Shown here: piece by piece, positions 1 through 57,723 of the stretch
Layout of the letters: every line of letters begins with the position of its first letter
Position numbering within the stretch: the stretch's first letter is position 1
DNA from: an uncultured Actinomycetes bacterium
Lineage (GTDB): Bacteria > Actinomycetota > UBA4738 > HRBIN12
NCBI GenBank assembly: GCA_963723855.1
Contig: CAVRSI010000011.1
Span: 122,181-186,180 of the forward strand
DNA length: 64,000 nt
Reading direction: 5' to 3'
Position numbers and translations under genes: made by a program
Notes under the pieces: generated by a model
Databases searched by the model: none
What the model was told of the DNA's origin: nothing
The model's input: the letters and a program-made list of their open reading frames with translations, nothing else

Positions 1-4172
<4,172 letters not shown>

Positions 4173-4474
4173 AGAGAATCCGAGTCCCCGAGCCCGAGGG
4201 CTTGCCTCGAGCTTTGGGGGGTTCGTTTTCGGTTTGGAGTCGGCCCGACGGGAAAGCACTTCCCCCGGACCGATTTCAGCTGATCCCGCCCGTTGTCCGG
4301 ACGGTTTCAGTACTACCGTCTGCTGCACTCTGAGACACGGCGAACCGCGCCTCCCAGCTGACGGGAAAGCACTGGCTTTTGACACACTGTTCAGTTCTCA
4401 AGGTGCGAGGGGACGCGTGATCCCAGCTGATGACACCAGAAGAGGCACCTCAGGGTGGGGCGCGCCGGATAGGT

Positions 4475-11284: not shown

Positions 11285-11295
11285 CGGCGCGCAGT

Positions 11296-14739: not shown

Positions 14740-14768
14740 CTGGCCGCCGAGTCTAACAACGTCCCTGT

Positions 14769-16223
14769 TCAGCCCGGCGTTGTGAGTGGGATGTCCAGAT
14801 GGAACGACAGCCGGCCGTCCGCGACTTCCGCCCACGCGCGGCCGCCCTGCGCGCTCGCCACGCCGCGCGCCACGAACAGGCCGATCTTGCTGCCCGCGCC
14901 CGTCCCGGGCCGGCGTGCGGCGAACAGCGCCTCGGCATCGACGCTGGTGAGCTCGGTCCCGTCCCGCCACACGGTGAGCTGCAAGCGATCGCCGACGCGG
15001 CCCCCTTCGATCGTGATCGGCCCTTCTCGTCCCCACCAGGCCTGCGCCTCGATGAACGACAGCAGCGCGCTCTTCACGCGCGCGGGATCGGCGACGACGA
15101 CGTCGCCCTTCCCGGCCCAGCGCACCTCGGGATGCTCGGGGTCGCGTTTCACCGACGCGACGATCCCCCGACCCAGCTCCGTCAGATCGATCCGTTCCGG
15201 GAACATCTCGAGCGTGCCCGCTGCGACCCGGCCGGCGTCGACCAGCAGGCGCAGGATCGCGTCCATCCGGTCGGCGTCGTAGACGATGCCTCGGAGCATC
15301 AGCGCCCGCTGCTCCTCCGTCATGATCTCCCACCGCTTCTCCAGCGCGTAGCCGAAGCCCTTCATCGCCGTCAGGGGCGAGCGGATGTCGTGAGCGGCGG
15401 CGGCCACGATCGTCTCGAGCGCGACGGTGCCGCTTCGACGCCTCCGAGCCCATTCGAACAGACACACGGTGGCGGCGGCCGCGAGGTTGAGCGACTCCGC
15501 CTTGCCCTGATGCGGGACCCGAACCGTGGCGTCGGCCAGCGCGAGGACGTCGTCGGGCAGCCCGTGCGCCTCGTTGCCGAACACGAAGACGACCGGCACG
15601 CTCAGGTCCACAGCGTATAGGTCCTGTTCGCCGTGCCCATCCATCGCGAGCACCCGCATCCCCTTGTCGCGTGCCCCCTGGAGGACGGCTGCCGTTCCCT
15701 CGTCGCGGACGATCGGCAGATGGAAGATCGACCCCGCCGAGGATCGCACGGTCTTGGGGTTGTAGACATCCACCGAGCTGGCCGTGAACACGACTCCCCC
15801 GGCCCCGGCGGCGTCCGCCGACCGCAGCACCGTTCCGGCGTTGCCGGGGTCACGCACTTCGTGCAGCACCGCCACGCACCCGTCGCTCGGCAACGCGTCG
15901 GACCCGACGTCGAGGAACGGGCACACACCCACGATCCCCTGCGGCGTCACCGTGGACGTCAGCTTGGCCATCACGTCCGAGCTGACCTCGTTGACGTCGA
16001 CGCCCGACTGACGTGCGCGGACCGCCAGTGGGTCCGCCCCATCGCTCACGAACAGCGCGAGGAGGGCCTCGGGATGCTCCAGGGCCTCACCGACCCCCTG
16101 GGCTCCTTCGACCAGGAAGCGGCGATCGTCTTCGCGGAACGCGCGCTTCTTCAGGCGAACGGCCGCGGCGATCTTCGGGTTCTTGATGGACGTCAGCACG
16201 GCACCGGATCCGCCACGAGACAC
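14769..16223 (-). CDS. TrmH/SpoU-family rRNA 2'-O-methyltransferase (RlmB/TsnR-like) fused to a C-terminal histidine-kinase catalytic core (HisKA + HATPase_c)
   Basis: The N-terminal ~260 aa carry an L30e-like domain plus SpoU motifs (RDPGNAGTVLRS, FGNEAHGL, ESLNLAAAATVCLFE). The C-terminal ~220 aa carry an H-box (AAHDIRSPLTAMKGF) and G-box (GSKIGLFVARGVASAQGG). It is one continuous 484 aa ORF. Confidence 0.8.
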   Translation of the reverse strand: MSRGGSGAVLTSIKNPKIAAAVRLKKRAFREDDRRFLVEGAQGVGEALEHPEALLALFVSDGADPLAVRARQSGVDVNEVSSDVMAKLTSTVTPQGIVGVCPFLDVGSDALPSDGCVAVLHEVRDPGNAGTVLRSADAAGAGGVVFTASSVDVYNPKTVRSSAGSIFHLPIVRDEGTAAVLQGARDKGMRVLAMDGHGEQDLYAVDLSVPVVFVFGNEAHGLPDDVLALADATVRVPHQGKAESLNLAAAATVCLFEWARRRRSGTVALETIVAAAAHDIRSPLTAMKGFGYALEKRWEIMTEEQRALMLRGIVYDADRMDAILRLLVDAGRVAAGTLEMFPERIDLTELGRGIVASVKRDPEHPEVRWAGKGDVVVADPARVKSALLSFIEAQAWWGREGPITIEGGRVGDRLQLTVWRDGTELTSVDAEALFAARRPGTGAGSKIGLFVARGVASAQGGRAWAEVADGRLSFHLDIPLTTPG

Positions 16224-21444: not shown

Positions 21445-21580
21445 AACCGCCACCCCGTCTCCTCCCATCCCGACTTTCACGGTCGGTCCCGGAATCTCAC
21501 CGGATCAACCCTCGCGTGGCTCGCGAGGGGTCGCGGACTTTCACCGCCGGTGGGGAATCGCACCCCGCCCCGGAAACGAG
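21445..21580 (-). ncRNA. FMN riboswitch (RFN element) controlling the ribD-ribE-ribBA-ribH operon
   Basis: The minus strand reads TTCCGGGGCGGGGTGCGATTCCCCACCGGCGGTGAAAGTCCGCGACC...GGTTGATCCGGTGAGATTCCGGGACCGACCGTGAAAGTCGGGATGGGAGGAG. This matches the conserved RFN core blocks. Confidence 0.88.
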
Positions 21581-21642
21581 TTATCTCGAGAACGAGTATA
21601 CGAGCGAGCCCGTCGGCCGGTCCAGGCGTGCGCCGCGGCCCG

Positions 21643-42737: not shown

Positions 42738-43801
42738 CTACAGCTCGATCAGTTCGCGGATGGACGTCCCGATGACGCGACACCCGTCGTCGCCGACCTC
42801 CACCATGTCCTCGATCCGCACGCCGCCCAAGCCCGGCACGTAGATGCCCGGCTCCACGGTCATGACCGCCCCGACCGGAAGGACGTCCTCGCCGTCGCGC
42901 CGGAAGTTCGGTCCCTCGTGGATGTCCAGCCCGACGCCGTGACCCAGCCCGTGGGTGAAGAACGAGCCGTATCCGGCGTCGTCGATGACGCCCCGAGCGA
43001 CGGCGTCGATCTGACCGCCGGTCGTGCCTGCGTGCGTGGCGTCGATCGCCGCCTGCTGCGCCTGGCGCACCACATCGTGGATCTTCCGAAGCTCCGCCGG
43101 CGGTGAGCCGAACGCGATGGTGCGGGTCATGTCGGCGTGGTAGCCGCCGCACAGCCCCGCGAAGTCCATCTTGATCACGTCGCCCTCCTCCAGCACCCGG
43201 TGGGTGGGGTGATGATGCGGCTCCGCGGACTGCTCACCGAACGCCACGATCGATTCGAACGACAGCCCGTCGGCCCCGGCTCGACGGAGCGCGTGCTCCA
43301 GCTCCAGGGCGACCTGGCGTTCGGTCATCCCGACCGCGAGCGTCTCGAGGATCTCCTCGAACGCGGCGTCGGTGCACGACTGCGCCTCGTCGAGCAGCGC
43401 GATCTCCTCCGCGTCCTTCACCCACCGAAGGCGCTCGACGGCCTCCCCCATCTCGACGAACTCGACGTCGGGGGCCTTGTCCTGCAGCTTCCGGAGCTCG
43501 CTCACCGTCACCTCGTGCGGTTCGAACCCCAGCCTGCCGATGCCGAGCGCGACGACACGCATCCGCGAGCGGCTCGGTCGAACCCGTCCAGGTACGTCAC
43601 ACGCTCCATATCCGGCACTTCATGACGTGACTGCTCGGTGTACCGCCCGTCGGTGAAGAAGAGACCCGCTGCCGGTGTCACGATCGTCTGTGCGTTCGAG
43701 CCGGTGAAGCCCGTCAGGTACCGGACGTTCGTCAACCGCGTCACGAGCATGGCGTCGACCGCCTGCTCCTCGATCGCGGGGATCAGTGCGTCGCGCCTCA
43801 C
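42738..43801 (-). CDS. Xaa-Pro aminopeptidase (M24B family); apparent frameshift near 43560
   Basis: The N-terminal creatinase-like domain (GTG start; ...AMLVTRLTNVRYLTGFTGSNAQ...FFTDGRYTEQ) is in the 43508..44668 frame. The catalytic domain with metal ligands (HGLGHGVGLDIHE..., E...E) is in the 42738..43562 frame. Confidence 0.85.
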
Positions 43802-44232
43802 TCGGTGATCCACGGCATCGCCTCCAGAGCCAGATGATAGCCACCGGCCCCGAGGCCGATGATGGACGCGCGGCAGACGCCGGCGACGACCGACGTCCGA
43901 CGGAACTCTTCCCGCGCATGGATGTTCGTCATGTGCACCTCCAGGACCGGGATCCCGCAGGCCTCGATCGCATCTCGGAGCGCGTAGGAGTAGTGGGTCA
44001 GGGCCCCGGGATTCACGACGATCGCGTCGATCCCGTCGGCGCGCGCGCCATGGAACCACCCGACGAGCTCGCCCTCGTGATCGGACTGGCGCCATGAGAC
44101 GTCGTGCTCCATCTCGCGCCCCCGATCCGTCACCGCGCCCATGATCTGCGCCAACGTCTGGGTGCCGTACGTCTCGGGCTCCCGGGTCCCGAGCGCACCG
44201 AGGTTCGGGCCGAACAGATAGAGGATCTTCAT
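43798..44232 (-). CDS. aroQ: 3-dehydroquinate dehydratase, type II
   Basis: 144 aa starting MKILYLFGPNLG, typical type II DHQase. Confidence 0.95.
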   Translation of the reverse strand: MKILYLFGPNLGALGTREPETYGTQTLAQIMGAVTDRGREMEHDVSWRQSDHEGELVGWFHGARADGIDAIVVNPGALTHYSYALRDAIEACGIPVLEVHMTNIHAREEFRRTSVVAGVCRASIIGLGAGGYHLALEAMPWITE

Positions 44233-44259
44233 GCGCCCGCTCCCATGTCGTTGAGCACC

Positions 44260-45310
44260 TTACGAGCCTCGTCGTCGGTGACGTCGTCGACCACGATCGG
44301 ACGTCCGATGTCTTGCAGGAGGACGAAGCGAACACCACCGCGGATACTTCTTGTCGAGCCTGAAGGCCGAGAGGATGTCGTCGGGGTCCGGAAGCGATCC
44401 GTCCGTCTCCAGCCCGAACGAGGCGAGCAGCCTCCCGGTGCGTGCGGCCAGGCCGTCGGGCGCCACGTCGCGGGCCTCCGCCAGCCGCGCCGCGAACACC
44501 ATGCCGACGGACACGGCCTCGCCGTGGGAACGGCCCGCGAACGCGTCCAGCCGCTCCAACGCGTGCCCGAGCGTGTGTCCGTAGTTGAGGATCAGGCGCC
44601 GACCGTCGTCCCGCTCGTCCTCTGCCACGATCTGGGCCTTCGCGGCGACGCAGCGAGCCACGATCCACTCGAGGGTCGCCGGGTCCCGCGCCAACACCGC
44701 CCCCGGGTCGCGCTCCAGCACGTCCAGGAGCCCACCGTCGAGGATCAGGGCGTACTTCACGACCTCCGACAGGCCGGAGCGGAACTCTCGCTCGCCGAGG
44801 GTTGCCAACGTGTCCACGTCGGCGACGACGAGCCGAGGTTGCGCGAACGCCCCTACGAGGTTCTTGCCCTCCGGAAGGTTGACGGCCGCCTTCCCGCCGA
44901 TCGCGGCGTCGACCTGTGCGAGCAGCGTGGTCGGCACCTGGACGAACGGGACGCCCCGCATGTACGTCGACGCGACGAACCCGGCGAGATCGCCGACCGC
45001 TCCCCCTCCCAGCGCGATCACGGGATCGTCACGATGGGCCTCCTGGGTCGCGAGCTGGTGCAGCAACGTCTCGTACACGCGCAGGGTCTTCGCGTCCTCG
45101 CCCGCGGGAACGACCAAGGGAACCGTGGCGAGGCCCGCCTCGCTCAGGGACGCCGCGAGCGGCTCCAGCCATCGAGCCGACACCGTGCCGTCGGCGACGA
45201 CGAACGCGGTGGAGGCGCCCGGGCAGCTCGGGGAGCAAGGAGCCGACCGACGCGATCGTGCCCGAGCCGACGCAGACGTCGTAGGACCGCCCCGGGATCG
45301 GGACGGTCAC
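44260..45310 (-). CDS. aroB: 3-dehydroquinate synthase; apparent frameshift near 45215 in a CCCGGG run
   Basis: The N-terminal ~32 aa ([31 protein letters not shown]) is in one frame. The remainder ([20 protein letters not shown]...[11 protein letters not shown]...) is in the 44260..45183 frame. Confidence 0.88.
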
Positions 45311-45804
45311 GCGGACCAACGAAGCTCCTCCACGATGGCGTCGGCGACCTCGGCGGGCGAGGCGGTCCCGTCGACCACGTGCGCCGCGAACTCGCGGTAG
45401 AGCGGCTCCCGAGCCGCCAGGAGGCGTTCCAGGTCGCCCTCCGTCCGGATGAGCGGCCGGTCCGCCGCGGGACGCACACGGGACCGGAGATCCTCGAGCG
45501 GCACGTCGAGGAACACCGCCACGCCGGTGTTCCGCAGGGTGATGCGGTTGGCGGGCTCCAGGACGACGCCGCCGCCGCACGCCACCACGGCCGGGTCGTG
45601 CATGCTCGCGTCCGTCAGCGCGGCGGCCTCCCGGGCGCGGAAGGCCGCCTCTCCCTCGGCGGCGAAGATGTCGGCGACGCTCGACCCCGTCTCGCGCTCG
45701 ATCTCCGAGTCGAGGTCGATGAACGGGACGCCCAACCGCCCCGCGAGCTCCTTGCCCACGACCGACTTGCCCGCTCCCGGCATCCCCACCAGGTAGACGA
45801 TCAT
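45307..45804 (-). CDS. aroK: Shikimate kinase
   Basis: About 165 aa starting [22 protein letters not shown]-loop kinase. Confidence 0.9.
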
Positions 45805-46953
45805 GCGAGCGTCTCCACGTACGCGTCCAGGTTCCGCCGCACCTCGGCCAGCGAGTCCCCGCCGAACTTCTCCACGACGGCGTTCGCGAGCTCGAACGCG
45901 ACGACCGCCTCGCCGACGACCCCTCCGGCCGGCACCGCGCACACGTCCGTCCGCTGCTTGATGGCGACCGCGGCCGCGCCCGTGGCCAGGTCCACGGTGG
46001 CGAGCGGACGGGGAACCGTGGAGAACGGCTTCATGGCGGCGCGCAGGCGGATCGGCTGGCCCGTCGACATGCCGCCCTCGATGCCCCCCGCGCGAGCCGT
46101 CTTGCGCCCGATGCGCCCGTCCCGGACGCACGATCTCGTCGTGGGCGTTCGATCCGGTCCGGCCGGCCGACGCGAACCCGTCGCCCACCTCCACGCCCTT
46201 CACCGACTGGATGCTCATCAGGGCCAGCGCGAGCCGCGCGTCGAGCTTGCGGTCGTAGTGCACGTACGAGCCGAGCCCGGGAGGCGCGCCGTACGCCACC
46301 ACCTCGAAGACCCCGCCGACCGTGTCCTTCGACCGCCGGATCCGATCGATCTCGGCGACCATCCGGTCGGCGGTCGCCTCGTCCGTGCAGCGCACCGGCG
46401 ATGCGTCGATCGCGTCCAGGTCGGCCAGGACCGGGACGCGCGACCGCGCCGGGACCTTCACGCTTCCGATCTGCACGACGTGTGAGAGCACGCCGATCCC
46501 GATCTCCGCGAGGAACGCCTTGCAGCAGGCCCCGACGGCGACCCGCGCGGCCGTCTCGCGCGCGCTCGCCCGCTCCAAGACGTTGCGCACGTCGTCGAAG
46601 CCGTACTTCTGCGTCCCGACCAGGTCCGCATGGCCCGGCCGCGGACGGGTGAGGCGCGCATCCGGATCCTCGGCGCCCTCGACGGCCATCAGGTCCGCGT
46701 ACTTCGCCTCGAACTCCACGTTGGGGATCGTGATGGCGATCGGGGAGCCCAGGCTGGTCCCGTGGCGGACGCCCGTCAAGATCTCGAACCGGTCGGCCTC
46801 GAACCGCTGCCGGCCTCCGCGCCCGTAGCCATGGCGGCGCCTCGCGAGCTCCCCGGCGATCTCCTTGGGAACGATCCCCACACCCGCCGGGAGGCCCTCC
46901 ACGATCGCGACCAGCGCTTTGCCGTGCGATTCGCCGGCCGTGAGCATCCGCAA
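45801..46953 (-). CDS. aroC: Chorismate synthase; apparent frameshift near 46112
   Basis: The N-terminal ~270 aa ([25 protein letters not shown]...) is in the 45307..46965 frame. The C-terminus ([24 protein letters not shown]...DAYVETLA) is in the 45801..46070 frame. One base is missing in CCGGG/ACGGG. Confidence 0.9.
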
Positions 46954-47014
46954 CATGGCGTTCATCTTACGGACCGGCCGAGGCGCCGGATGGGCGGGGG
47001 CGTGGTCTTGATGG

Positions 47015-47050
47015 GGCGGGGGCGGCCCCGAAGAACGAGGCCGCCCCCGC
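47015..47050 (-). terminator. GC-rich stem-loop (GGGGCGGCC-loop-GGCCGCCCC) between the pil MNOP-like operon and aroC
   Basis: There is a perfect 9-bp inverted repeat with no U-tract, so intrinsic termination is uncertain. Confidence 0.35.
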
Positions 47051-47100
47051 GCCGGCGACCGCTCCCCCCGTGGGCGGATCGCCGGGACCCGGAACCCGTC

Positions 47101-47760
47101 TACTTCGACGGGACGAAGCAGAGCGTGAAGGACTGATCTCCGAACAGGAACGTGGCACAGTCGCCGGCGACGTCCCGCAGCTCGAAGTTCCCCCCCGCGA
47201 ACGTGTCCCCTTCAGCCGGGTGGTAGACCGTGCCGTCGACCGACGACCGAGGCGTGCTGCACGCCGTTGGAGGTGTACGTGTCGATCAGCACCACCTCAT
47301 GACCGCCGATGGTCGTCGACGATCCGTTCGTCGGCGGCAGGGTCGGCCCGGTCGGTCCGGGGCCGGTCGTCCCACCGGTGGACCCCGTCGGCCCGGGACC
47401 CGTCGTCCCACCGGTGGACCCAGACGGCCCCGACGGCCCGGGTCCGGTGCCGGTGCCGCCGGTGGACCCTCCGGGCGCCGGGAACTGCGGCGGGATCGAG
47501 AACGGATCGCGCCCGGAGAAGATCGGGCTCGGGGCGGGTCCGCCGCTCTGCGACGGGGACACGCTGCCGGTCGGTCCGGTCGACGGAACGCCGGTGACGC
47601 CGGTCGGACCACCGCTCACCGATGGCCCCACCGAGAGCGGCGGCAAGGCCGATCCGCCGCCCTTCCCCAGCTGACCGAGAAGGAGCAGCGCGAGGACCAG
47701 CACGCCGGCCACGATGCCCCCGATCTTCAGCGCCTTACGGTCGCGTTCGTTGAGAGGCAT
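47101..47760 (-). CDS. PilP-like type IV pilus protein: N-terminal TM helix, Gly/Pro/Ser/Thr-rich tandem-repeat linker and a small C-terminal domain; apparent frameshift near 47225
   Basis: Reads [28 protein letters not shown]..., then a linker ([13 protein letters not shown] x2), then ...[19 protein letters not shown]. The continuation [46 protein letters not shown] (stop about 47101) is in the adjacent frame. Confidence 0.5.
47351..47421 (-). repeat. Two copies of a 36-bp in-frame tandem repeat encoding [12 protein letters not shown] inside the PilP-like gene
   Basis: Near-identical 35/36-nt units at 47351-47385 and 47387-47421. Confidence 0.8.
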
Positions 47761-47763
47761 CCG

Positions 47764-48414
47764 TCAGGCTCCTGGCTTCGTCTCGGCTGCCGGCGAAGGG
47801 CTCGTGGGCGCGGTCGTCGCGGTCGTCGCGCCGGCCGCAGAGGTCGGGCCAGGCGATGAACCCGGGCCAGCGCTCTCGTCGCTCGTGTAGATGTCGACCG
47901 AGGCGGTGAGGGTCAACAGGCTCGAGTTGCTTTCGGAGGGCGAGGGCGAGATCGACACCGCGGTCGTCTTCGCGGCGCGCGGGAGCGTCTCGACCTTGAA
48001 CAGGAACTCCGTGAGCGCGAAGTAGGAACCGGTGGTTGAGATGGCGTTGGCCACGGTGGACAGTCCCGTGGCCGGGTCGAAGATGGGATTGGTCGGCGTG
48101 ATCGTGACGACGTCGACCCCCGACTCCACGGCTGCGTTCTGCATCAGCAGCATGAACCCTTGCTGGTCGACGGTCGGCGGGATCGCTTGCTGGACCTTCC
48201 GGATGGTCTCCCGGTTCGCCGGGGCCTCTGCCTGGGCCGCCTGAAGAGCCGCCAATTGCGCACCCAAGGTCGCCTGCTGACCCTGCGCCTCCGCGAGAGC
48301 GGCGTTCGCATCCTTCACCTGACCCATCTTCGGCAGCACCAGGAAGAACCCCACCAGCACGACCGCGGCGGCGGCGGCGATCCCGGCGAACAGCGGCGCG
48401 CGCTTACCCCCCAC
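47764..48414 (-). CDS. pilO: Type IV pilus assembly protein PilO
   Basis: Has a TM helix (LFAGIAAAAAVVLVGFFLVL), a coiled-coil region and a periplasmic domain. Probable GTG start at about 48414. Confidence 0.7.
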   Translation of the reverse strand: MGGKRAPLFAGIAAAAAVVLVGFFLVLPKMGQVKDANAALAEAQGQQATLGAQLAALQAAQAEAPANRETIRKVQQAIPPTVDQQGFMLLMQNAAVESGVDVVTITPTNPIFDPATGLSTVANAISTTGSYFALTEFLFKVETLPRAAKTTAVSISPSPSESNSSLLTLTASVDIYTSDESAGPGSSPGPTSAAGATTATTAPTSPSPAAETKPGA

Positions 48415-49034
48415 CCTGCACGTCCCCTCGGCCGCGAGGCGTGAGCGCGTCCTCCGAAAGGTCGACCCCGCTGGTGAAGGTGTACAAGCCCGGTATTCGG
48501 ACCGGTCTCGGTGGCGCTCGAGACCCAAGGGTTGACCCATCCCTTAACCGATTCGAGCCTCGTGATCCAGCTCGCTAGGCTTTCGAACCCGTCCGCCGCC
48601 CCGCCGGCGGTGAACGACCCCACGAACGTCGTGGTGGTCGACGCCGCGGCTGTCCCGGTCACCGGCGCCGTGAGCGAGGCACTGAACGAAGAGAGGTACG
48701 CGTCCGATGGGATCGTGCGGGAGAGGTCCATCAGCATCTCCGAGAACGACACTTCGCCGACATACGCCTTCGCGAGCAGCGCCTCCTGCGCGGCGGCCTG
48801 CTCCTGGAGCTGCTGGAACTCCTGCAGCTGACCGATCTGAGCCTGGAGCTGCTGGTTCGTTGCGTTCTGTGCCGCGATGTCGTCGTTGATGCCCGCCAGC
48901 TTCTGGCTCTGCAGGAACCAGAAGGCGATGAGCAGCACGACCACCGCCGCACCGGCCCCGACGATCAGTGTGGTCTGCTGTTTGGTCTTCTGCCGTGCGC
49001 GAAGCTCAGGGGGAAGGAGGTTGACCTGACTCAC
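48404..49034 (-). CDS. pilN: Type IV pilus assembly protein PilN; possible frameshift near its 3' end (about 48460)
   Basis: Starts MSQVNLLPPELRARQKTKQQT with a TM helix. The ORF tail after ...SSATETGPNTG looks out of frame. The adjacent frame gives LYTFTSGVDLSEDAL... ending at TAA 48404, 8 nt before the pilO GTG. Confidence 0.8.
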
Positions 49035-50086
49035 GCGAAATGCCTCCCGGGGATGCCCAGGCCGACGGCCACCGCGAGCACCGGCTCCGCTTCGGCAAGC
49101 GCCTCCTCAGACAGGGACAGCTGCGACTTGGCCCGGCGGAACACGTGGCCGCGCTCGATCGTCGCGGGAACCCGTTCCTGCAGGAGCTCCAGGAAGCCCT
49201 GCAGCTTCGACCCGCCGCCGATCACCAGGACCCGCCCGATCCGGGCCCCACGCGTCTGGGCCGTGTAGAACTCGAGCGAGGACCGAACCTCGTCGACGAA
49301 GTTCTGCGCCCGCTGCATGGCGGCGCGATGGACCTCTTCCAGGTCGGGACCGCCCTCGACGGCCTCGCCGCGCTTCAGACGCTCGGCGACGTCGGCCTCG
49401 ACCCCGAAGTTCCGGGCGATCGCCAACGTGATGTCCCGGCCGCCCGACGGCAGGATCCGGACGAACCGCGTCACGCCCTTCTCGTGGACCAGGATGTTCG
49501 TGACCGTGGCGCCGATATCGACGATGGCCTCTTCGCCACCCTCTTCGTCCTCCATGCCGACCTCCGGCATGCCGACCGCGCGCGCCATGGCGAACGGAAC
49601 CAGGTCGACGCCGATCGGCTCGAGCTTCGCGGCGAGCGCGACATCGACGACCGTGTTCACCATCGCGCGCTGCGCGGCGACGAGGATGAGGCGCAGCATG
49701 CGGCGCCCCTCCTGCTCGAACTCTCCGAGCGGATCGAAGTCCAGGACGGCGTCCTCGACCGGCATGGGGATGAACTCCTGCGCCTGGAACCCGAGCGACG
49801 CTCGGAGCTCCTTCTCGGGGAGCCACGGGAGCGCGATCTCGCGCACCACCACCCGTTGGTTCCCGACACCCATGTAGACCTGCCGGCTCTTGAAGCCTCC
49901 GCGCTGCCAGAGCTCGCGCAACGCCTCGCTGACGACCTCGGGCTGGCGGATCTCGCCCGCCTCGACCGCCCCCTCCGGCAACGGCACCTGCGCCGCCCGA
50001 ACGACCACGGGGGTGTCGCCGCCCTGGAGCTCGGCGGCGCGCACGGCCGTCGCGCCGATATCCAGTCCGACCCGTACCTTCGCCAT
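49031..50086 (-). CDS. pilM: Type IV pilus assembly ATPase-like protein PilM
   Basis: 351 aa starting MAKVRVGLDIGATAVRAAEL, an actin-like fold typical of PilM. Confidence 0.9.
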   Translation of the reverse strand: MAKVRVGLDIGATAVRAAELQGGDTPVVVRAAQVPLPEGAVEAGEIRQPEVVSEALRELWQRGGFKSRQVYMGVGNQRVVVREIALPWLPEKELRASLGFQAQEFIPMPVEDAVLDFDPLGEFEQEGRRMLRLILVAAQRAMVNTVVDVALAAKLEPIGVDLVPFAMARAVGMPEVGMEDEEGGEEAIVDIGATVTNILVHEKGVTRFVRILPSGGRDITLAIARNFGVEADVAERLKRGEAVEGGPDLEEVHRAAMQRAQNFVDEVRSSLEFYTAQTRGARIGRVLVIGGGSKLQGFLELLQERVPATIERGHVFRRAKSQLSLSEEALAEAEPVLAVAVGLGIPGRHFA

Positions 50087-50293
50087 CTACGGACCCTCCG
50101 TCCGAACGGAGCGCTCCTCCAGGAAGCGCTCCAGGTCTGTCTCGCGCAGCCGGTAGTTCTTGCCGACGCGCACGGCCGGAAGCTCGCCGCTCTTGATCAG
50201 CCGGTAGACCGTCATGTTCGAGACCCGCATCGCGTTCGCGACCTCGGACACGGTCAGGAGACCGCCCGGAACGAACGGCTGCGACTCGCTCAC
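50087..50293 (-). CDS. Small MerR/excisionase-family HTH DNA-binding protein (BldC-like, 68 aa)
   Basis: GTG start; reads LTVSEVANAMRVSNMTVYRLIKSGELPAVRVGKNYRLRETDLERFLEE. It sits immediately upstream of pilM and is preceded by the SD GGAGGAGGG. Confidence 0.7.
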   Translation of the reverse strand: MSESQPFVPGGLLTVSEVANAMRVSNMTVYRLIKSGELPAVRVGKNYRLRETDLERFLEERSVRTEGP

Positions 50294-50327
50294 GCGGTCA
50301 CCCTCCTCCGAGTGCTCTTGTTGTCAC

Positions 50328-50383
50328 CTCATGTGGCACTTGTGCCACGTTGGTGCTCATGTGCCTCAAGTGGCACGATGAGG
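50328..50383 (-). promoter_or_regulatory. Operator-like array upstream of the HTH gene: two 23-bp units, each an inverted repeat of GTGGCAC/GTGCCAC half-sites
   Basis: Unit one is CTCAT-GTGGCAC-TT-GTGCCAC (50328-50348, perfect 16-bp palindrome). Unit two is CTCAT-GTGCCTC-AA-GTGGCAC (50355-50376). Confidence 0.6.
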
Positions 50384-50743
50384 CCCCTTACCAAACACCA
50401 GGGAGCAACCGCAGTCAAACATCTCGCACAGGGAAGTTTCCGCAGGTCCGAACGGGTGTTCGGACAAGACCAGCTGCGCTCGGTCCCGAGAGTGGGTCGG
50501 CCTGCTGCCGGATTCATGTAAGAAGGGTGCCGAACCTGTTCAGTTAAGATTGACACCGCCGACGTACGGTGGCAGGAGTGGCGCAGGTCGATGCCACAAC
50601 ATCGCCCAGTTCGACGCCTTCCTCACGCCGAAATGGATAGGTCGGAACCGGACTTAGGACGAAGGGACGGCCGGAAGAGCACCTTTTTGCCGCTGTTGCG
50701 CCCTGGTCGGGTGACATAGATTGACCCAGTGAGGAAGCTTCCG

Positions 50744-51138
50744 ATGACGAAACGACGGTCGATCGCACGGGGGCTCGGGCAAGCAGTCGCCCGTTCGCAA
50801 CGCCCGCCCTTCCCCGATTGCCCGACCTCGAGACCGAGGGACCGGTGCATCAGCTGCTCATGTCCGGGGAGCGCGATGACGGCGGCTGGGGCCTCATCGG
50901 GGCGTTCTGGCTCTCGGTCGACGGCCGGCGCGGCGGGTTCATCGTGTCTCCGGGATTCCTTGGCATGGTAGCGAGATGGTCCGCAGCCTTCGAAGCGCGC
51001 TCGACCGCGGCTGGACCGAGGAGCGGATACTTCTCCTGCTGGGAGGGTCAGGTCGGCACCGTTGGCACCTACATGATCGATCCCGAGACGCCCGCGGAGA
51101 ACCTGGTCGAAGTCGCCCGCCGTGTAGGGGCGCTCTAG
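50744..51138 (+). CDS. Hypothetical small protein (possibly frameshifted between 50729 and 50818 frames)
   Basis: An SD (GTGAGGAAG) precedes the ATG at 50744. The downstream frame 50818..51138 has high GC3 and a plausible sequence (...GWGLIGAFWLSVDGRRGGFIVSPGFLGMVARW...). No recognisable domain. Confidence 0.3.
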
Positions 51139-51469
51139 CGGCGATCGGTGGTCATCCGCTTCCAGGCGCTCCGCTTCCCGCCAGCGTTGCCCTATCGGGC
51201 TCGCGTTCCATGTCCATCGCGATGCGTACTCAGCGATCGGTATCGAGAACACGATCCTTTCCGGTGGGGCAGAACGGGTGTCAGGATGTCGTGGCTGCCT
51301 AGTCCCGTACGCTCGGAGCGGAGCCGCAGAGAGGTAGGCGACCCCTGAGCCCTCGCCACCAGGCGGCGGCGCACGCCTCTCGATGGGTTGCGGCAAGAGG
51401 TCCGGCTGAGGACCCGTGCCGCCGCTCGGGTCACGTTGCCGTCGGCGAGACGTCCTGCGACAACGCGCC

Positions 51470-52288
51470 TTAACCGTCCGCGTTTGCCTCACTCTCACCG
51501 TGGAGGGACGGGTTGCTGATCAGTTCGGCGATGGCTAGCCCAAGCAGAACCAGTCGTCGTCGGGGAGGATCCCGCCTGCTGCGACGGCGCCGGCGCTTGC
51601 TGGCCCAAGATCTCAAGACAGATGCATCGGCTTCGCCAAGGCTTGGCGCATTCACCAAGGTGCCTTGAACAACCACCCCGATCGTGCAGGTGCCGCCGAC
51701 GCTGTAATAGAAATCCCCATTGAGTGCGGTGTTGATCGCCCCTGTCACGTTGAAATCGCCGAACACGCTCCTGTAACAAGTAGGTGCTCCGGCTGGTGGG
51801 GTGATATTGGCCGTCGTCGTAGCAGTCGTCGATGTGAGCAGGTATCTGCCCGCGTTCGCGTCCAGGGTGATGCCGGTAGCTGTCACCGAGATGCCTGTTC
51901 CGGGGCCGATGGACGCGAAGGTCGCGCTTGCGGCCGAGCAGGTCACGACGTCGGGCGAGATCACCCCGGTCAGCGAGCAGAGGGTCATCGTGGCCGCATT
52001 CGCGCCGTCGTAGACCTTGTCGGCCGCAGTCACGGTTGCGGTCACCGGCCGATACAGCGTCCCGCCTTTGGCCCCATAGCCTATGCAGAGCGCCTCACTT
52101 GGAAACGTTGTTCCGTCCGCGCGGACGAGCGTTTGCCAGCCGCCCTTCTGACAGAGTTTCGCATTCGTGGAGTTGCTGCCAGCGAAAGCGATTCCGACGT
52201 TGACGACGAGCATCACAACCACAAGGCCGAACGTCGCCACGATCGAGACCATGCGTCGAGCCCTTCGGCGCTCACGTCTCGCCCTCAT
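51470..52288 (-). CDS. Secreted/membrane-anchored protein with an MBG/YDG-type adhesin-repeat signature, in a lower-GC island
   Basis: Has an Arg-rich N-terminus plus hydrophobic segment (MVSIVATFGLVVVMLVVNVGIAFA) and a Cys-containing region. It carries a KVYDG...LTGVISPDVVTCSAASATFAS...GRYLLTSTTATTTANIT block typical of MBG/YDG repeats. Local GC is about 55-60%. The C-terminal ~60 aa may be out of frame. Confidence 0.5.
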   Translation of the reverse strand: MRARRERRRARRMVSIVATFGLVVVMLVVNVGIAFAGSNSTNAKLCQKGGWQTLVRADGTTFPSEALCIGYGAKGGTLYRPVTATVTAADKVYDGANAATMTLCSLTGVISPDVVTCSAASATFASIGPGTGISVTATGITLDANAGRYLLTSTTATTTANITPPAGAPTCYRSVFGDFNVTGAINTALNGDFYYSVGGTCTIGVVVQGTLVNAPSLGEADASVLRSWASKRRRRRSRRDPPRRRLVLLGLAIAELISNPSLHGESEANADG

Positions 52289-52656
52289 GATTCACCCTTC
52301 TTCATGGTGCCCGAACCGTCATGACGTCTCGCCCGATCCAGGGACTTGACAACCCCCCTTCCGTCCTACTATCGACCGGAGACAGCGCCTCGCCCCATCG
52401 GTCTTCGGTCGGCGAATCCGGGCCACAAGGCGTAGCACTCGCCAATCAGTCAGCGTGAACACCTAAGCAACTGAGGGCTTGCATGACTCGGAAGACATCA
52501 CTCGGGATGAAGCAAGCCGGGTCCATCGGAGGATTGGGACCTTATCGGCTCCTTGTGTCGCCGCCTTCACCGGTCTCCTCTGTCGTCGCCTTCACGTGGT
52601 AAACGGCCTCGACTCCACGGAAGGAACTTGGCCGATCGGCCCGAGCGGGGCAAGCC

Positions 52657-53436
52657 TCACGATTCGCGCTCACGTGACCGAACGGAGGTACCAGTCTGCG
52701 ATCGTCGCACCCCAAGCGTCGCTGTGATGGCGCCCGCCGCAAGGAACGGCCCGAATGGGATCGCGCTCTTTCGCCCGCGGCCGGCGAGCAGGGCGACGAG
52801 GCCTCCCAGACCCCCGAGCAAGACTGCGACGCCGGCCGCCACAGCGACGCAGCGCAAGCCGAGCGCTCCCATCATCAAGCCGATCAGCGCCGTCAGTTTC
52901 ACGTCGCCCATGCCGAGGCCTCGAGGCGCTATCAACGCGATGAGCATGAACAGACCCCCGTAGGCGAGCACACCCACGATCGCGCGCAGCGGGGCCAGCG
53001 GTTGGCCGATCGCCCACCCGAGGACGATCGCGGCGGCGAACGCTGGGAACGCGGGATAGGTGATCCGGTTAGGGATGATGCGATGCTCCAGGTCGATGGC
53101 ACCCACGGCGAGCATCGTCGCGCAGAAGGCGACAGAACCACGATCAGATGAGATCTGTGGATAAACGATGGCGACCCCCGCGAACAAGGCCGCGGTCCCC
53201 CCCTCCAGCACGGGATATCGGACCGGGATCGGTGCACGGCACGAGCGACACCGACCGCCGAGAAGGAGCCACGAAAGGACCGGGATGTTGTCGCGACTCT
53301 TGATCTCGGCACCGCAGTGCGGGCAGCGCGACCGCGGTGAGACGATCGATTCCTTCTTCGGGATCCGGTCGACGACGACGGTCAGGAAGCTCCCGACAGC
53401 GAGTCCGAACGGTACCGCGACGAGGGCACGGATCAC
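52657..53436 (-). CDS. pilD: Type IV prepilin peptidase (A24 family) PilD
   Basis: Has N-terminal zinc cysteines (CPHCGAEI...CRSCRAPI), catalytic Asp motifs including GMGDVKL, and multiple TM segments. Confidence 0.9.
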   Translation of the reverse strand: MIRALVAVPFGLAVGSFLTVVVDRIPKKESIVSPRSRCPHCGAEIKSRDNIPVLSWLLLGGRCRSCRAPIPVRYPVLEGGTAALFAGVAIVYPQISSDRGSVAFCATMLAVGAIDLEHRIIPNRITYPAFPAFAAAIVLGWAIGQPLAPLRAIVGVLAYGGLFMLIALIAPRGLGMGDVKLTALIGLMMGALGLRCVAVAAGVAVLLGGLGGLVALLAGRGRKSAIPFGPFLAAGAITATLGVRRSQTGTSVRSRERES

Positions 53437-53475
53437 GCGTCACTCACGCGCAAACCTTAGCGCCCCTACCAGACC

Positions 53476-54957
53476 GGACCATGGAACCTACGAGGCCTCG
53501 CGCACGTACGCGATGTCCTCGCGGAACGAAGTGATGGTGCCGTAGCCCGGAACGAGCACCGGGCGGAACGTCATCGTGTAGTTGTTCCCGATGACGACAG
53601 TGCCGCCCATGACCTGGCCGTAGTAGTTGTTCTGGTTGTTCATGTTCGCCGCGCAGGGTGTGTAGAAGAAGACCTGGGTGTTGGAGTCGAAGTTCGTGAG
53701 GTTCCCGACGCTGACGTCCTTGCTTGACGTGCCTGTCGGGCAGGGAGATGGAGCGGGCCATGTGCTGATGAAGAAGATGCTCTCGGTCGCGGAGGCTCCG
53801 TTCCAATTGGATTTCTGCTGGAGGTTGATGCCCCAGTCCGTGATGATCGCTAGGTTCCCATTGACACCTATCGTCTTGTTGTTGCCGTTCGAGAACGTGC
53901 AGGGGGTCGCGCCGGGTCAATCCGCACGACGAAGCTCCCAGACCAGGAACCCTCGACGAACGATCGGGCCTGACTGCAGGCGTCTCCCACCGAGAACGTA
54001 TTGCCTCCGCATGTCGTGGACGCCGACGCGCCAAACGTGCATACCGTGTATCCCGCATTGACCCAGTTCGTTTGGTCCGTCGCCGTGAACGTGATCTGAG
54101 GGAAGGGTTGGGTCGGAGGCCTGGGCGACACGGTGTTCGTGTATGACGTTCCGGCCACGGAGACCCCGCTGATCGTCGTGCCCGCAGTAGCGCTGTTGCC
54201 GATCGATTCGCTGCCGCCGATCGAGGAGCTTGAAGAGGTGACGCTGCCCGAGACGCTCGTGGGGTTGGCCATGGTCACACTGTCGTTGGCCCACAGGTTC
54301 CCCTGGATGTTCGAGTTGTTTGAGATCGACGCCGCCCCGTATGGGATGTAGACGTTGCCGCGAATGCGTGGCGTGTTCGTGATGACGAGGTCGCCGTTCA
54401 ATATGTACACGTCGCCGTCGTTCCCGTTATTGCCGTAGATGTCGAAGTTGTTCGGGAAGTTCGCGCCATTGTTGGTAAGGACGGCGGCTCCGAAGCCCCC
54501 GTAGACAGGCATTAGTCGGATGTAGGTCTGCATCGTCCTCGGGGTTTGACCGCCAACCGTTCCCGTAGTGGTGATGAATACCGACGACGGGTAAACCGCG
54601 TCGGTAAAGGGACAGTTCATCACGTGCGCAGGGGTAAGCAAACCACTGGCGTCGTAAAAGGTCGGCGTCGCAGTGAAGCTAGCGCTCGCCGGCGCGCTCG
54701 CGATCGACTGGGTCACGGGGTTACAGCTCAGCGTCGTAACCGGGGTGGACTGCAGGAGCGCGTAGTAGTAGTTCGCGCCGGATTCGGCGGCGTCTACTGA
54801 GGTCAGCCTTTGCCGGTCGTAGCCAGTGGACTGCGCGTCGTGGATCGACTGCGCGACGATCACGGTGGACAGGATCAGCAGCACCATGCTCACGAGGAGG
54901 GCGATCACCATCGCCATTCCTTCCTCTCCGCTCGATCGGATGCGCATCGTTAGCTCC
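53476..54957 (-). CDS. Large PilX/PilY-like pilus-associated protein (about 490 aa); apparent frameshift at a C5 run near 53905
   Basis: The SD TAAGGAG precedes an ATG at about 54957. It starts MRIRSSGEEGMAMVIALLVSMVLLILSTVIVAQS and has Asn/Gly-rich beta-solenoid-like repeats (NGANFPNNFDIYGNNGNDGDVYILNGDLVITN...). The C-terminal ~140 aa (GVNGNLAIITDWGINLQQK...FREDIAYVREAS) is in the adjacent frame. Confidence 0.5.
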
Positions 54958-54984
54958 TTACGGTTCACGTTGGCACGTTCGTGG

Positions 54985-55580
54985 GCAGGGTGGCGCAGAC
55001 GGCGAGCGGATAGCCGAACGAGGTGTTTCGGCCCGTCACCGAGGTCTGCAGTCTTTGGGTCGCATTGGCGGACCCCGTCGGGGTCCGAGTTGACGAGGAA
55101 CTGCACCGTCATCGTCCGCCCGGTAGGATCAAGCGTGAATGCGCTCTGTGATTGGGCGCGGTTCAAGATGCCGTCGGCAACGACCTGCCAGGTCAAGGCT
55201 CCCGGCGTGATGTTCGGCTTCCAATACCCGTACATCAGCTGGTTCTGACTGTTGATCGTCCACAGAGCGCAGCGGCTGATGTCATCCTGTGCTGAGTAGG
55301 CCTGGGTGTAGATGAGGAACGTATACCCTGCGGCGTTGGGCGGGTACAGGAGATTGCCGGAGCGCACCTGGCGGTCGATCGTCTGCATGGCGAGGCGGAC
55401 CTGGTTGATCGTTCTGGACCGCACGTCCTCGTTCACGCTTGCCTTCTGGATCGATGTCAAGGTCGATAGCAGGATCACCATGGCGATCGACAGGATGCTC
55501 ATGGCAACCACTAGCTCGACGAGCGTCATGCCTCCGTGTTCGTGGAGGCGCTGCCGTAGCTTGGCGATCCGATTCGCCAT
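54985..55580 (-). CDS. Minor pilin with prepilin-type N-terminal cleavage/methylation domain
   Basis: Starts MANRIAKLRQRLHEHGG|MTLVELVVAMSILSIAMVILLS (G-1, E+5). Its 3' end is unresolved because the track ORF runs into the next gene, so a terminal frameshift is likely. Confidence 0.65.
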
Positions 55581-55585
55581 CCCTA

Positions 55586-57369
55586 TCACCCGGCCGCCGG
55601 CGCGGGAGCGTAGACACTTCGCGTGAGCATCGTCCCCATGTTGATAGCGATGTTCAGGTTTATCGCCGTCGCCCCGTCGACGATCACCACGTAGTGCACC
55701 GTCGCCTTGAAGGGCGTCACGCTTGAGTCCTCGGCCGTGCACTGGGTGAGCGTCGCGCTCGGCGTGCACGTCCGGGTCGAGCCGGACGTGGCTGCTTGGA
55801 TCCCGAGCTCACCGAGATGGTCACCGTGACAACGTGCCCGCCGACCGTGGCGGTCTGGGTCGCGGGAGGCGCAACGATGTTGTTGAGCAGCGCATCTGTC
55901 ACCGAGCGAGAGGTGTAGCTTGCACCGTTCCAGTAGGAGATCGTGCCGGCCGACGGGGCGGCCGCCGGCGCGGCCGTGGTCGTCGACCCCGCCTGGGAGG
56001 TCGCGCTGTCCCGGTATCCGGTCATCGAGAGCAGGTAGCCAGTCCAACCGGCCGGCGCGCCGACCGCCGCCGGGAAGGCGCCGATGTTCACCTGGCCGAT
56101 GTTCCGGGTGGCCGACCGCGACGCTGCCGTCCTTGCCGGGGTCCACCTGGCGATTGACGAAGGACGTGTTTGGGTTGCTCGCGGCCGCGTCGACGCTCGC
56201 AAGCGCCGCGGTGCCGAGGCCCCCAGCAAGTCCATTGAGAGTCATGGAGGCCGTCAGAGGCGCCTCCCTGCTGGATCCGCCCGCCGACGCAAGGGAGGTT
56301 ATCGGTCTCAGCCGTATCGGTCGGGGGCGGGCAGACGTTGGTTCCCCCGGCAGCGACCGCGGCGTCGGCCAAGCCGGCGTCATTCGGTGGCGCTCCAGGT
56401 CGATGGACGTCGAGCCGTTGGTGGACGAAACCGCACCGCCTAGGCCCGAAACCGGCAGACTCGTACCGTAGGTGAGGGCGGGTGCTCCCGGGTCTGAGTC
56501 CGCGGCGCTCGCCGTCGTGAGCGTACCGGCGTCCGTCCGTGTGCCAGCCCCATCTGTCACCGAGACCTGGGACTCCGAGAACGACGCCCGACCTACCGTC
56601 ACTTGCTCGTTCTGAAGGTTCGACTCCGTTCCAGTCAGACCGAGGTAGCCGCTCGTGAAGTTGTTCAGGCCCTGGATCGACCCGCTGATATCGATATGCG
56701 CTGCCGGCACCTGCGCGAGGCCGTAAAAGGACGGTTGGCACGGAGCCGCGAATGGGTGGGTCGACGAGCTCAGGCACCCACTCGGCGACGAGAACAGGCT
56801 CTGGATCTGAACGAGGTTGTTGGCCTTGTTCGGGTAGGCAGCGCTTGTCCAGCTAATCATGACGGTGACCCGGTACGGGGTCATCGCGGGGCAGGTGGCC
56901 GTCACCGAAGGGCAGTCGTTAGTGACGTAGGTCTGCCAGTTGAAAGCGATGTTATTCGTCGTCGCGGTCGCGGCGATCGTGCCGGTGTGTGGATTGATCC
57001 ACGGCGTCGAAGGCACGCCACCGGAGTTCACGATCCGCTCGCCTGAGCAGGACTGGAACCGGTAGACGATCGGTGTCCCCCCACAGTTCGCGATGTTCGG
57101 GTCTGTTAGATCACTGCTGGACAGCCCCGTCTGGATCTTCGAGTACGCCTGCCCTCGGATGGTCTCCATGATCTGGTCCGCGATGCCGTCGGCGGTGACA
57201 CGCTCGCGGCCGTAGGCGATCGAGTGGAACCCGAGGGTCGCCGTGTACGCCATCGCGACCATGGCGGCGAAGATGATCGTGATCGCGATCATCGTCTCGA
57301 TGATGGTGAATCCGCGCTGGTCGTCTTTGGCGAGCGCAGACAGGCGCCTTGCAGTATCGCCCGGGTCAT
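55586..57369 (-). CDS. Large minor pilin / pilus tip protein with prepilin leader; several apparent frameshifts (leader at about 57349, body at about 56400 and about 55760)
   Basis: The ATG at 57369 (SD GGGAAGGA) gives MTRAILQ in one frame. The joined reading would be RRLSALAKDDQRG|FTIIETMIAITIIFAAMVAMAY. The body is Thr/Ser-rich and its pieces lie in at least two frames before the common stop at about 55586. Confidence 0.55.
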
Positions 57370-57723
57370 ACGGTCCTTCCCTATGTCAACAGCTGTCGAG
57401 TAATGGGTCGGCAACTCGGCTGGCCGGCTTGAGGTCATCTGGGGGATATCCCGCGGATCGGGTAGGTCGAACGACTCAGGTTCCTTGGGTACCGGACCGT
57501 GGCAGGATTCCTTGAGGGAGGACGACACCTCGTCTGATACACATGCCCAAGAGAACGGAGCACACAGAAGGGGCGGCCCGGAGGCCGCCCCTTGCGTGTG
57601 TGCCGTTCCTGATCGTCTGTTACGGAATGCGGGTGCCGCGGCCGCAGCAGCAGCGGTGCCTGTGCAGTTGGCCGGCGCGCGGTGGAACCATAGGTGGTGC
57701 CTCCGGCAGCCGAGTCTTTGATC

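Follow-up and report, generated by a model that had tools for sequence, protein, structure and literature searches.

Between two type IV pilus operons of an uncultured high-GC bacterium lies a gene-poor stretch of lowered GC content (positions 50300-52650 of the 64,000-nt stretch of DNA that we analyzed, hereafter the window), and we asked whether this segment is an imported island carrying an adhesin, as the original prediction held, or an ordinary part of the pilus locus. Our analysis makes the latter likely. The segment appears to be the chromosomal junction of the two operons in a high-GC soil bacterium, one running from the pilin genes to pilD and the other from an HTH gene into pilMNO, with a gene for a YDG-domain secreted protein, a gene of 130 aa and non-coding scars between them, rather than an imported island (Table 1).

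Table 1. Features at the junction of the two pilus operons, in window coordinates
Feature	Position	Strand	Evidence
pilD (prepilin peptidase)	52657-53436	-	Pfam A24_N_bact E=6.9e-33, Peptidase_A24 E=1.2e-13
Variable spacer after pilD	52443-52656	-	Alignment A5; inverted repeat
YDG upstream region, ~150 nt, aligning in 5/5 loci	52289-52442	-	
YDG-domain secreted protein gene, frame-corrected, 251 aa + stop	51535-52288	-	Pfam, orthologue alignments, frame repair
Signal peptide (predicted), residues 1-36	52181-52288	-	Inspection and hydropathy scan
Two-Cys N-module, residues 37-80	52049-52180	-	
YDG domain, residues 81-156	51821-52048	-	Pfam YDG 46.7 bits, cutoff 25, E=3.8e-12; motif KVYDG
Four-Cys C-terminal domain, from residue ~161	51538-51808	-	
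Two 1-nt deletions (between 51624/51623; at 51609/51608)	51608-51624	-	DNA and protein alignments against 4/4 orthologues
Non-coding DNA between convergent YDG and 130-aa genes	51139-51534	.	Flat GC3 plot
Gene of 130-aa hypothetical-protein family, 5' end approximate	50746-51138	+	GC3 signal on + strand
Phosphoesterase (PF04185) gene relic	50507-50644	.	blastn to L003
Upstream region of HTH_17-pilMNO operon	50294-50481	-	TTGACT hexamer, two adjacent dyads
HTH_17/excisionase-family DNA-binding protein, 68 aa	50087-50293	-	Pfam HTH_17 E=1.6e-17; TIGR01764 E=4.7e-19
pilM, first structural gene of pilMNO operon	49031-50086	-	Pfam PilM_2 E=1.8e-48

The last gene of the upstream pilin/minor-pilin operon, pilD, is syntenic with pilD of two related metagenomic loci (L001 and L003), and a cut gene preceding the YDG gene in a third (L004) aligns to pilD. 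At the opposite end, the HTH_17 stop codon runs straight into the pilM start codon (TAGATG). L003 and L004 likewise have this gene immediately before pilM, and the PilM proteins of the window and L003 are 97% identical. The placement of the YDG gene between pilD and the HTH_17-pilM pair was confirmed, and so was the low coding density: no frame signal appears in the GC3 plot over 50260-50740, 51160-51600 and 52240-52640, and after frame correction the non-coding segments (50294-50745, 51139-51534 and 52289-52656) amount to ~52% of the flagged region. This ~1.2 kb would comprise two upstream regions together with the scars of deleted genes, namely a phosphoesterase gene and the tail of an fn3 gene.

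The YDG protein carries a basic and hydrophobic N-terminal segment and multiple cysteines, in line with the signal or anchor segment and the Cys-rich segment originally noted. By inspection and a hydropathy scan, its N-terminus reads MRARRERRRARR, followed by a 23-residue hydrophobic core and then AFA|GS; the leaders of its homologues are shorter and classic, ending in ALA|GGGNS. Signal peptidase I would be expected to cleave at AFA|GS (near A36|G37), although the h-region is long and the segment is possibly an uncleaved signal anchor instead. Pilin features were absent (no N_methyl match in Pfam and no class III leader with G at -1 and E at +5), as were a lipobox (L-[AS]-[GA]-C) in the leader and an LPXTG or TM anchor at the orthologue C-terminus, which ends in ...GGDLPDDDWFCLG*. 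This combination points to a protein most likely released or just loosely surface-associated, and we infer a binding protein whose cysteines would form stabilizing disulfide bonds.

An orthologue, P0003, scored 46.1 bits against the same YDG model. Searches with the Pfam MBG families (MBG, MBG_2 and MBG_3) gave no match in the YDG protein at E<=1, and no second YDG-like segment was found in the window, so that of the "MBG/YDG repeat" first described there stands a single YDG (Ig-like) domain with its KVYDG motif. The flanking modules matched no Pfam family and no NCBIfam model. The N-module, with the motif CQKGGWQTL...C.(S/G)Y, is common in soil actinobacterial secreted proteins; MAGs, among them those of Gaiellaceae and Solirubrobacteraceae, and 78 soil metagenome contigs encode it joined to unrelated passenger domains. 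The four-Cys C-terminal domain is rare, with 13 clusters among 1.8 billion representatives, mostly small proteins in which it goes with this N-module or else with a PKD or HYR domain. An AlphaFold2 model built from four close orthologues reached a pLDDT of 36; adding the C-domain family raised that domain to 79-94, making the model confident for the C-domain alone. The model had no structural match in PDB or BFVD, the two sets compared, and phmmer found no match for the protein among PDB sequences. A literature search on bacterial YDG/MBG domains returned almost only papers on eukaryotic SRA/YDG proteins. A lone YDG domain placed within a family of small secreted two-module proteins appears to be a previously undescribed architecture.

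Four metagenomic orthologues were recovered (L001-L004), all of 251 aa, 76-96% identical and each directly after pilD. Scans of genome and metagenome contigs yielded no further full-length orthologues, N-module relatives alone being retrieved. The YDG gene is under purifying selection (dN/dS 0.31-0.48). Between L003 and L004, dS is 0.27 for YDG vs 0.91 for pilM; between L001 and L003, it is 0.22 for YDG vs ~0.09 for its neighbours. Such divergence, unlike that of the flanks, suggests that some horizontal exchange of the segment among relatives has probably occurred, and the confinement of full-length orthologues to a very narrow clade would fit a possible older acquisition of the gene. We picture it as a clade-specific and probably monocistronic gene with its own upstream region.

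Does this position make the protein a partner of the pilus? The original prediction of a pilus-associated adhesin or secreted substrate is possible, with gene position within a narrow clade as its one basis. We judge it rather unlikely that the protein works together with the type IV pilus, whether as a soluble factor that leaves the cell through or alongside the pilus machine, like TcpF and CofJ in type IVb systems, or as an adhesin docking on the pilus. Such a role would agree with the gene following pilD directly, and on the same strand, in all orthologous loci recovered, with a predicted Sec-type rather than pilin leader, and with the occurrence of YDG domains typically in adhesin-type passenger proteins (10.1101/2024.05.07.592589); moreover, the YDG gene and a 485-aa minor-pilin-like gene both contain local hot spots of divergence in loci that are nearly identical elsewhere. 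However, the synteny was seen just among close relatives (dS 0.2-0.3), which makes it weak, a spacer of 240-370 nt separates pilD from the YDG gene, and the downstream DNA is variable. Other N-module loci were without pil genes within the sequence fetched, the context of other C-domain proteins came from one short contig (contigs of ~900 nt), and no known family of pilus-associated proteins showed similarity to the YDG protein. As a proposal about function, it does not conflict with the anatomy of an operon junction. It is improbable that the three-module protein is a dedicated actinobacterial type IV pilus accessory, that is, a soluble adhesin or effector with pilus-dependent release or display; were it so, the cysteine modules would be new extracellular domain families, and the N-module would be an N-terminal handle on diverse passenger domains, widely used by soil Actinomycetota.

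The reading frame of the YDG gene required correction. The open reading frame as called (51470-52288, minus strand) encodes 272 aa; owing to two 1-nt deletions, it is spurious in being 21 residues too long, running out of frame over its last ~50 residues and ending at 51470. Reinsertion of both missing bases gave a colinear 251-aa product, and the true stop is the TAG at 51535-51537. The gene first proposed is thus real, of exported type and equipped with one YDG domain, but its C-terminal ~50 residues were misread. We consider both deletions to be most likely assembly errors because aroC, aroB and pepP are frame-broken too; frame breaks also occur in pilN and in the window's minor-pilin genes. 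We think there is only a slim chance that the frameshifts are real and that the window copy is either a pseudogene or a variant whose remodelled C-terminus lacks the last two conserved cysteines. The two deletions lie 15 nt apart, both within the C-domain, in a region clearly undergoing gene loss, which would suit such decay; against it, frame breaks also affect aroC, aroB and pepP, the sequence past the indels matches the orthologues closely as far as the conserved stop codon, and L002, a 96%-identical relative, has the gene intact.

The original prediction also drew on composition. Relative to a background GC of 0.696 (sd 0.029, taken from 4-50 kb), the values in 300-nt windows were 0.59-0.62 at 50150-50750, 0.65-0.69 at 50750-51650 and 0.61-0.66 at 51500-52700, a patchy profile that dips ~3 sd below background at its lowest point. 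GC is also 0.61-0.67 at 53-62 kb, the entire pilin/minor-pilin/pilC part of the pilus cluster; there is therefore no discrete island at 50300-52650. The reported GC drop is real, with dips to 0.59-0.66, but it is patchy, shallower than the "55-60%" claimed and extends beyond the flagged region. The GC3 of the YDG gene (0.76-0.77 vs 0.80-0.93 in neighbour genes) is the lowest of the locus, a mild difference, and its low overall GC arises mainly at codon position 1, as in the pilin genes. The lowest-GC DNA consists of non-coding upstream sequence and deletion scars rather than imported genes. Lower GC would thus come from non-coding, decaying DNA combined with a secreted protein rich in Thr, Ser, Ala and Asn, the pilin genes showing a like effect.

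A horizontally acquired low-GC island carrying an adhesin is very unlikely, even though GC falls by up to ~3 sd, the YDG gene has the lowest GC3, divergence is mosaic, the gene content beside it differs between loci and its family is very narrowly distributed. The YDG gene occupies the same slot after pilD in 4/4 related contigs, its position being conserved in all relatives, and it is under purifying selection with a mild GC3 offset that, at 0.76, is still typical of a high-GC host. No tRNA was found within the 64-kb window, and no integrase, transposase or other mobility family scored above the Pfam cutoff in the ORFs scanned. Repeats bracket just the small 52476-52656 spacer, the lowest-GC parts are non-coding scars and the same GC level spans the whole pilus cluster. 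A genomic island would be expected to be restricted to certain strains, to have mobility genes and borders of tRNA or repeats, and to stand out in codon composition. The locus does not fit that profile, although its divergence is mosaic.

The spacer after pilD (52443-52656) occurs in the window, L002 and L004, whereas L001 and L003 lack it. Most of its length lies between the arms of an imperfect inverted repeat (52476-52491 and 52641-52656); the identification of this spacer as a MITE (52476-52656) was dropped, as neither the window nor the other fetched loci held further copies. The adjacent upstream region (52289-52442) presumably holds the promoter, 5' UTR and AAGGG ribosome-binding site of the YDG gene, and its JC distance of 0.18-0.21 equals the dS of that gene, so that no constraint is evident.

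On the far side of the YDG gene, gene content up to the HTH gene varies across loci. The "unassigned small ORFs" described there resolve into one gene on the plus strand, unrelated to the YDG gene. It encodes a protein 65% identical to the 130-aa protein of L003 (tblastn E=6.6e-44), bears a compensated frameshift pair near 50960 and 51029, and belongs to a widespread family with 421 homologues and no Pfam or NCBIfam match. An overlapping minus-strand ORF (50623-51498, 291 aa) was rejected, since its GC3 phase fits the plus strand and its sole Pfam match lies below the cutoff. Two scars accompany this gene. The segment 51373-51484 shares homology with the 3' end, plus the flank beyond it, of an fn3-protein gene retained in L001 (76.8% over 112 nt against L001:14719-14826, blastn) and is therefore a deletion scar. 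The phosphoesterase relic aligns to L003:11828-11923 (69%, E=1.4e-5) and L003:11513-11540 (89%, blastn) and keeps the peptide NIAQFDAFL; L003 has the whole gene, and at its end L001 carries a cut-off gene that shares this C-terminal sequence.

Upstream of the HTH_17 gene, a dyad, GTGGCAC-NN-GTGCCAC, lies at 50333-50348 with an imperfect copy at 50361-50376, and we infer that these may be candidate operator sites; the dyad GTGGCACNNGTGCCAC shows no enrichment over the rest of the window (8 matches vs 5.3 expected). The HTH_17 upstream region shows 80.5% aligned identity to that of L003, the neutral level, and the non-coding DNA is conserved no better than synonymous sites. That these stretches encode small RNAs, as first suggested, or a riboswitch-like leader controlling the YDG or pilMNO genes is extremely unlikely, for although the ~150 nt preceding YDG and the ~190 nt preceding the HTH gene can be aligned between loci and the latter holds dyad repeats, Rfam 15 gave 0 matches at E<=1 across 49500-53500, the YDG leader showed no sign of stable structure (MFE z-scores -0.4 to +1.6 in five loci), leader divergence equals synonymous divergence, and a promoter/terminator scan was negative for both kinds of site. 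Given these z-scores and a divergence at the neutral level, we dropped the idea of a structured leader RNA.

Taken together, the main value of this work is a correction: a compositional dip resembling an acquired adhesin island is, in our likely reading, an operon junction with gene-decay scars in an indel-rich assembly. The finding is ordinary overall, with a modest new domain architecture, and it brings forward two putatively cysteine-stabilized extracellular modules without Pfam or NCBIfam models, the N-module being abundant in soil actinobacterial secretomes. Were the YDG protein to depend on the pilus, it would add a rare case of a secreted factor that is linked to the pilus without being a pilin, here from uncultured high-GC soil bacteria.

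Several known systems offer partial parallels. The YDG protein resembles type IV pilins and minor pilins in its gene position beside pilD and in its hydrophobic N-terminal segment; unlike them, it lacks G at -1, E at +5 and an N_methyl match, and the segment ends in a predicted AxA signal-peptidase-I site. TcpF of Vibrio cholerae and CofJ of ETEC are reportedly soluble factors from type IVb pilus operons, secreted with the help of the pilus. With these, the YDG protein shares its non-pilin nature, a predicted Sec-type leader and a location within a type IV pilus gene cluster; by contrast, no sequence or fold similarity to them was detected, the pilus class and organism differ, and any pilus dependence of the YDG protein is a prediction from gene position.

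Proteins with YDG domains (PF18657) are usually large MBG/YDG-repeat adhesins or haemagglutinin-type T5bSS passengers. The YDG protein resembles such surface and secreted proteins in that residues 81-156 score above the model cutoff and carry the KVYDG...TANIT signature, and its nearest YDG counterparts in the database are segments of multi-repeat proteins, among them P0005 and P0010. It differs from the repeat adhesins in having one YDG copy, no MBG domain and 251 aa vs hundreds to thousands of residues, in placing the YDG domain between two unannotated cysteine modules, and in a host whose pilus genes are of monoderm type (Gram-positive-like). A parallel in overall build is found in P0106, P0108, P0112, P0116 and related small secreted proteins, which have a signal peptide, the CQxxGWxTLxRxDGxxFxNxGxCVSY module and the four-Cys C-domain (alignment A6). 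In those proteins the modules are joined directly or with a PKD or HYR domain between them, whereas the YDG insert belongs to the pilD-linked clade alone.

The minus-strand ORF at 51470-52288, lying between pilD and the HTH_17-pilM pair, matches the Pfam family YDG (PF18657) over residues 81-156 with 46.7 bits (cutoff 25), whereas no MBG family matches it even at E<=1; the gene thus has a single YDG domain, and the MBG/YDG repeats named in the original prediction are not supported. A search of 5.8 billion proteins returned four full-length relatives with 76-96% identity. P0002, P0003 and P0004 have 251 aa each, and P0001, called at 239 aa, starts at an internal Met in a locus where the full 251-aa ORF is present; a fifth relative, P0006, is frame-damaged, and all remaining matches cover only the N-terminus or the YDG segment. 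Through protein and DNA alignments, we observed that, compared with all four relatives, the window gene is short of two bases, the first between 51624 and 51623, the second at 51609/51608, which puts the final ~50 residues of the 272-aa ORF in the wrong frame. Putting the two bases back yields a colinear 251-aa product ending in ...DDDWFCLG, with a stop at 51535-51537. Pairwise dN/dS values of 0.31-0.48 indicate that the gene is functional, although less constrained than pilM or pilC (0.04-0.05). It follows pilD in the same orientation in 4/4 related metagenomic contigs (L001-L004). Conservation, purifying selection and positional linkage to pilD are shown for the gene, whose product combines an export-type leader with one YDG domain.

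The protein begins with MRARRERRRARR, followed by a hydrophobic core of 23 residues and AFA|GS; a pilin leader, lipobox and LPXTG motif are absent from it. Residues 37-80 form a two-Cys N-terminal module (AKLCQKGGWQTLVRADGTTF...C.GYGAKGG), which recurs directly after the signal peptide, with unrelated passenger domains, in proteins from Gaiellaceae, Solirubrobacteraceae and other MAGs. The module was present in 78 soil-metagenome contigs, and many soil-bacterial proteins (L005-L010, L012-L089) carry the pattern GGGNS..AK.CQKGGWQTL..DG..F.N.G.CVSY..GG after their signal peptide. One of them, from a Solirubrobacteraceae MAG (L009), is 535 aa long and contains four tandem repeats of ~107 aa. For the C-terminal domain, the last 90 residues were run exhaustively with HMMER against 1.84 billion representatives and gave 13 clusters at E<=0.001, mostly small proteins (103-207 aa) with this domain at the C-terminus; one fragment also carries a PKD domain, and one larger protein alternates three copies with HYR domains. 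Four Cys are conserved, C171, C201 and C224 being invariant and C249 nearly so. Several of the small proteins also have the N-terminal module, which indicates that the pilD-linked protein belongs to a two-module family with an inserted YDG domain. Neither module matches Pfam or NCBIfam; AlphaFold2 modelled the C-terminal domain at pLDDT 79-94 from a 15-sequence alignment, and Foldseek found no structural match to the model in PDB or BFVD.

By tblastn of intact L003 proteins against the window, frame switches were found in aroC, aroB (three frames), pepP, pilN and two minor-pilin-like genes (210 and 481 aa), and the 130-aa hypothetical-protein gene carries a compensated indel pair. The density over the two segments tabulated below is ~1 indel per 1.5-2 kb, which suggests a long-read assembly that was not polished; breaks so frequent in housekeeping genes are better read as assembly indels than as pseudogenes. 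Frame correction is consequently needed before ORFs in the window are interpreted.

Coordinates of features, and gene content between the YDG gene and HTH_17-pilM
Feature	Location	Detail
Coding periodicity	50755-51110	plus-strand phase
Coding periodicity	51610-52230	phase of minus-strand ORF
Flat codon-position signal	50260-50740, 51160-51600, 52240-52640	
Frame-switching genes	42741-49034 and 53491-55580	versus intact orthologues
Low L001/L003 identity	L001 7707-7834, 8340-8560	485-aa minor-pilin-like gene
Low L001/L003 identity	L001 10046-10350	5' half of YDG gene
YDG to HTH_17-pilM	L004	no genes
YDG to HTH_17-pilM	window and L002	130-aa gene, opposite strand
YDG to HTH_17-pilM	L003	130-aa gene and phosphoesterase
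YDG to HTH_17-pilM	L001	~4 kb extra genes ahead of 130-aa gene

The claimed fall to 55-60% GC proved real as dips but patchy and less deep. In 300-nt sliding windows, GC is 0.59-0.62 over 50150-50750, returns to 0.65-0.69 over 50750-51650 and is 0.61-0.66 over 51500-52700, against a background of 0.696 (sd 0.029; same statistic, 4-50 kb). Nor is the low GC local: 1-kb bins stay at 0.61-0.67 from 50 to ~62 kb, across pilD, minor-pilin-like genes, pilins and pilC. The low coding density was borne out, the GC-by-codon-position plot being periodic at two places only and flat over three stretches. The other low-GC stretch (57-60%, 1-4 kb) is due to an rRNA operon on the minus strand at 1-4175, with a complete 16S gene, a 23S gene truncated at the window edge, and a spacer in which no tRNA was found.

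No tRNA was found in the window, no integrase or transposase family exceeded the Pfam cutoff in the ORFs scanned, and bracketing repeats surround only the small spacer 52476-52656. The YDG gene has a GC3 of 0.76-0.77 versus 0.80-0.93 in its neighbours, and its low total GC lies chiefly at codon position 1, as in pilin genes. Between L001 and L003, YDG dS is 0.22 versus ~0.09 in flanking genes, the excess being concentrated in the 5' half; between L003 and L004 it is 0.27, versus 0.91 for pilM. L001 and L003, otherwise 93-99% identical, fall to 68-85% in local patches; such hot spots of divergence are typical of surface proteins that recombine or diversify. Recombinational exchange is common for surface-protein genes, and the mosaic divergence suggests that relatives exchanged the pilD-YDG segment in this way; it does not indicate the foreign, horizontally acquired island originally proposed.

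Gene content between YDG and HTH_17-pilM differs among loci. In L001 the extra block (11020-14772) has genes for a 186-aa Cys-rich protein with a Tat signal (RRQALK), a 283-aa protein whose HPr-kinase-like match is weak, and a secreted fn3 protein. The window retains a 112-nt remnant of the fn3 gene's 3' end (51373-51484) and two phosphoesterase-gene fragments (50507-50644, peptide NIAQFDAFL kept), so that part of the "intergenic" DNA is deletion scar. With 421 matches, the 130-aa protein falls into a large hypothetical-protein family, whose genes in other genomes adjoin ftsK, sometimes in tandem, without pilus genes nearby; tandem paralogues lie beside ftsK in recA-cinA-ftsK-rnj regions (L090/L091:6482-7387, L092:7001-7393), and the adjacent L092 recA has a LAGLIDADG intein. 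The 68-aa HTH_17 gene directly abuts pilM (TAGATG), is syntenic in L003 and L004, and looks like a pilMNO operon member rather than a mobile-element excisionase. Just upstream of this operon (50333-50376), a 25-nt sequence occurs as a pair of direct repeats spaced 28 nt apart; both include a dyad (GTGGCAC-NN-GTGCCAC in one, its imperfect copy in the other). The repeats are mostly kept in L003 and in part in L004, and the dyads are candidate operators. L001, L002 and L003 have a PMT-family protein O-mannosyltransferase gene (L001:3537-4865) between their pilin and minor-pilin genes; tblastn gives no match to it in any part of the window (corresponding site ~57350-57650), so that close relatives may differ in their capacity to glycosylate pilins.

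Small RNAs, also proposed for the non-coding DNA, found no favour: Rfam gave no match there at E<=1, and the 150-nt leader of the YDG gene is no more stably folded than its shuffled versions. Leader divergence (JC 0.18-0.21) equals gene dS, and its alignability is therefore uninformative on constraint. An FMN riboswitch lies at 21453-21581 on the minus strand (108 bits, above the gathering threshold).

Collectively, the flagged region is a junction between operons of an ordinary kind, subject to gene flux; the small secreted protein that it encodes is modestly novel, and the assembly through which all this is seen is rich in indels. By its position this protein could plausibly act with the pilus, but such a role is unlikely overall, since YDG-pilD synteny is shallow and the other loci with the N-terminal module lack pil genes within the sequence fetched. 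The leader is presumably cleaved, the eight Cys probably form disulfides, and the protein would act as a binding module outside the cell; YDG domains are typically carried on adhesin-type passengers (10.1101/2024.05.07.592589).
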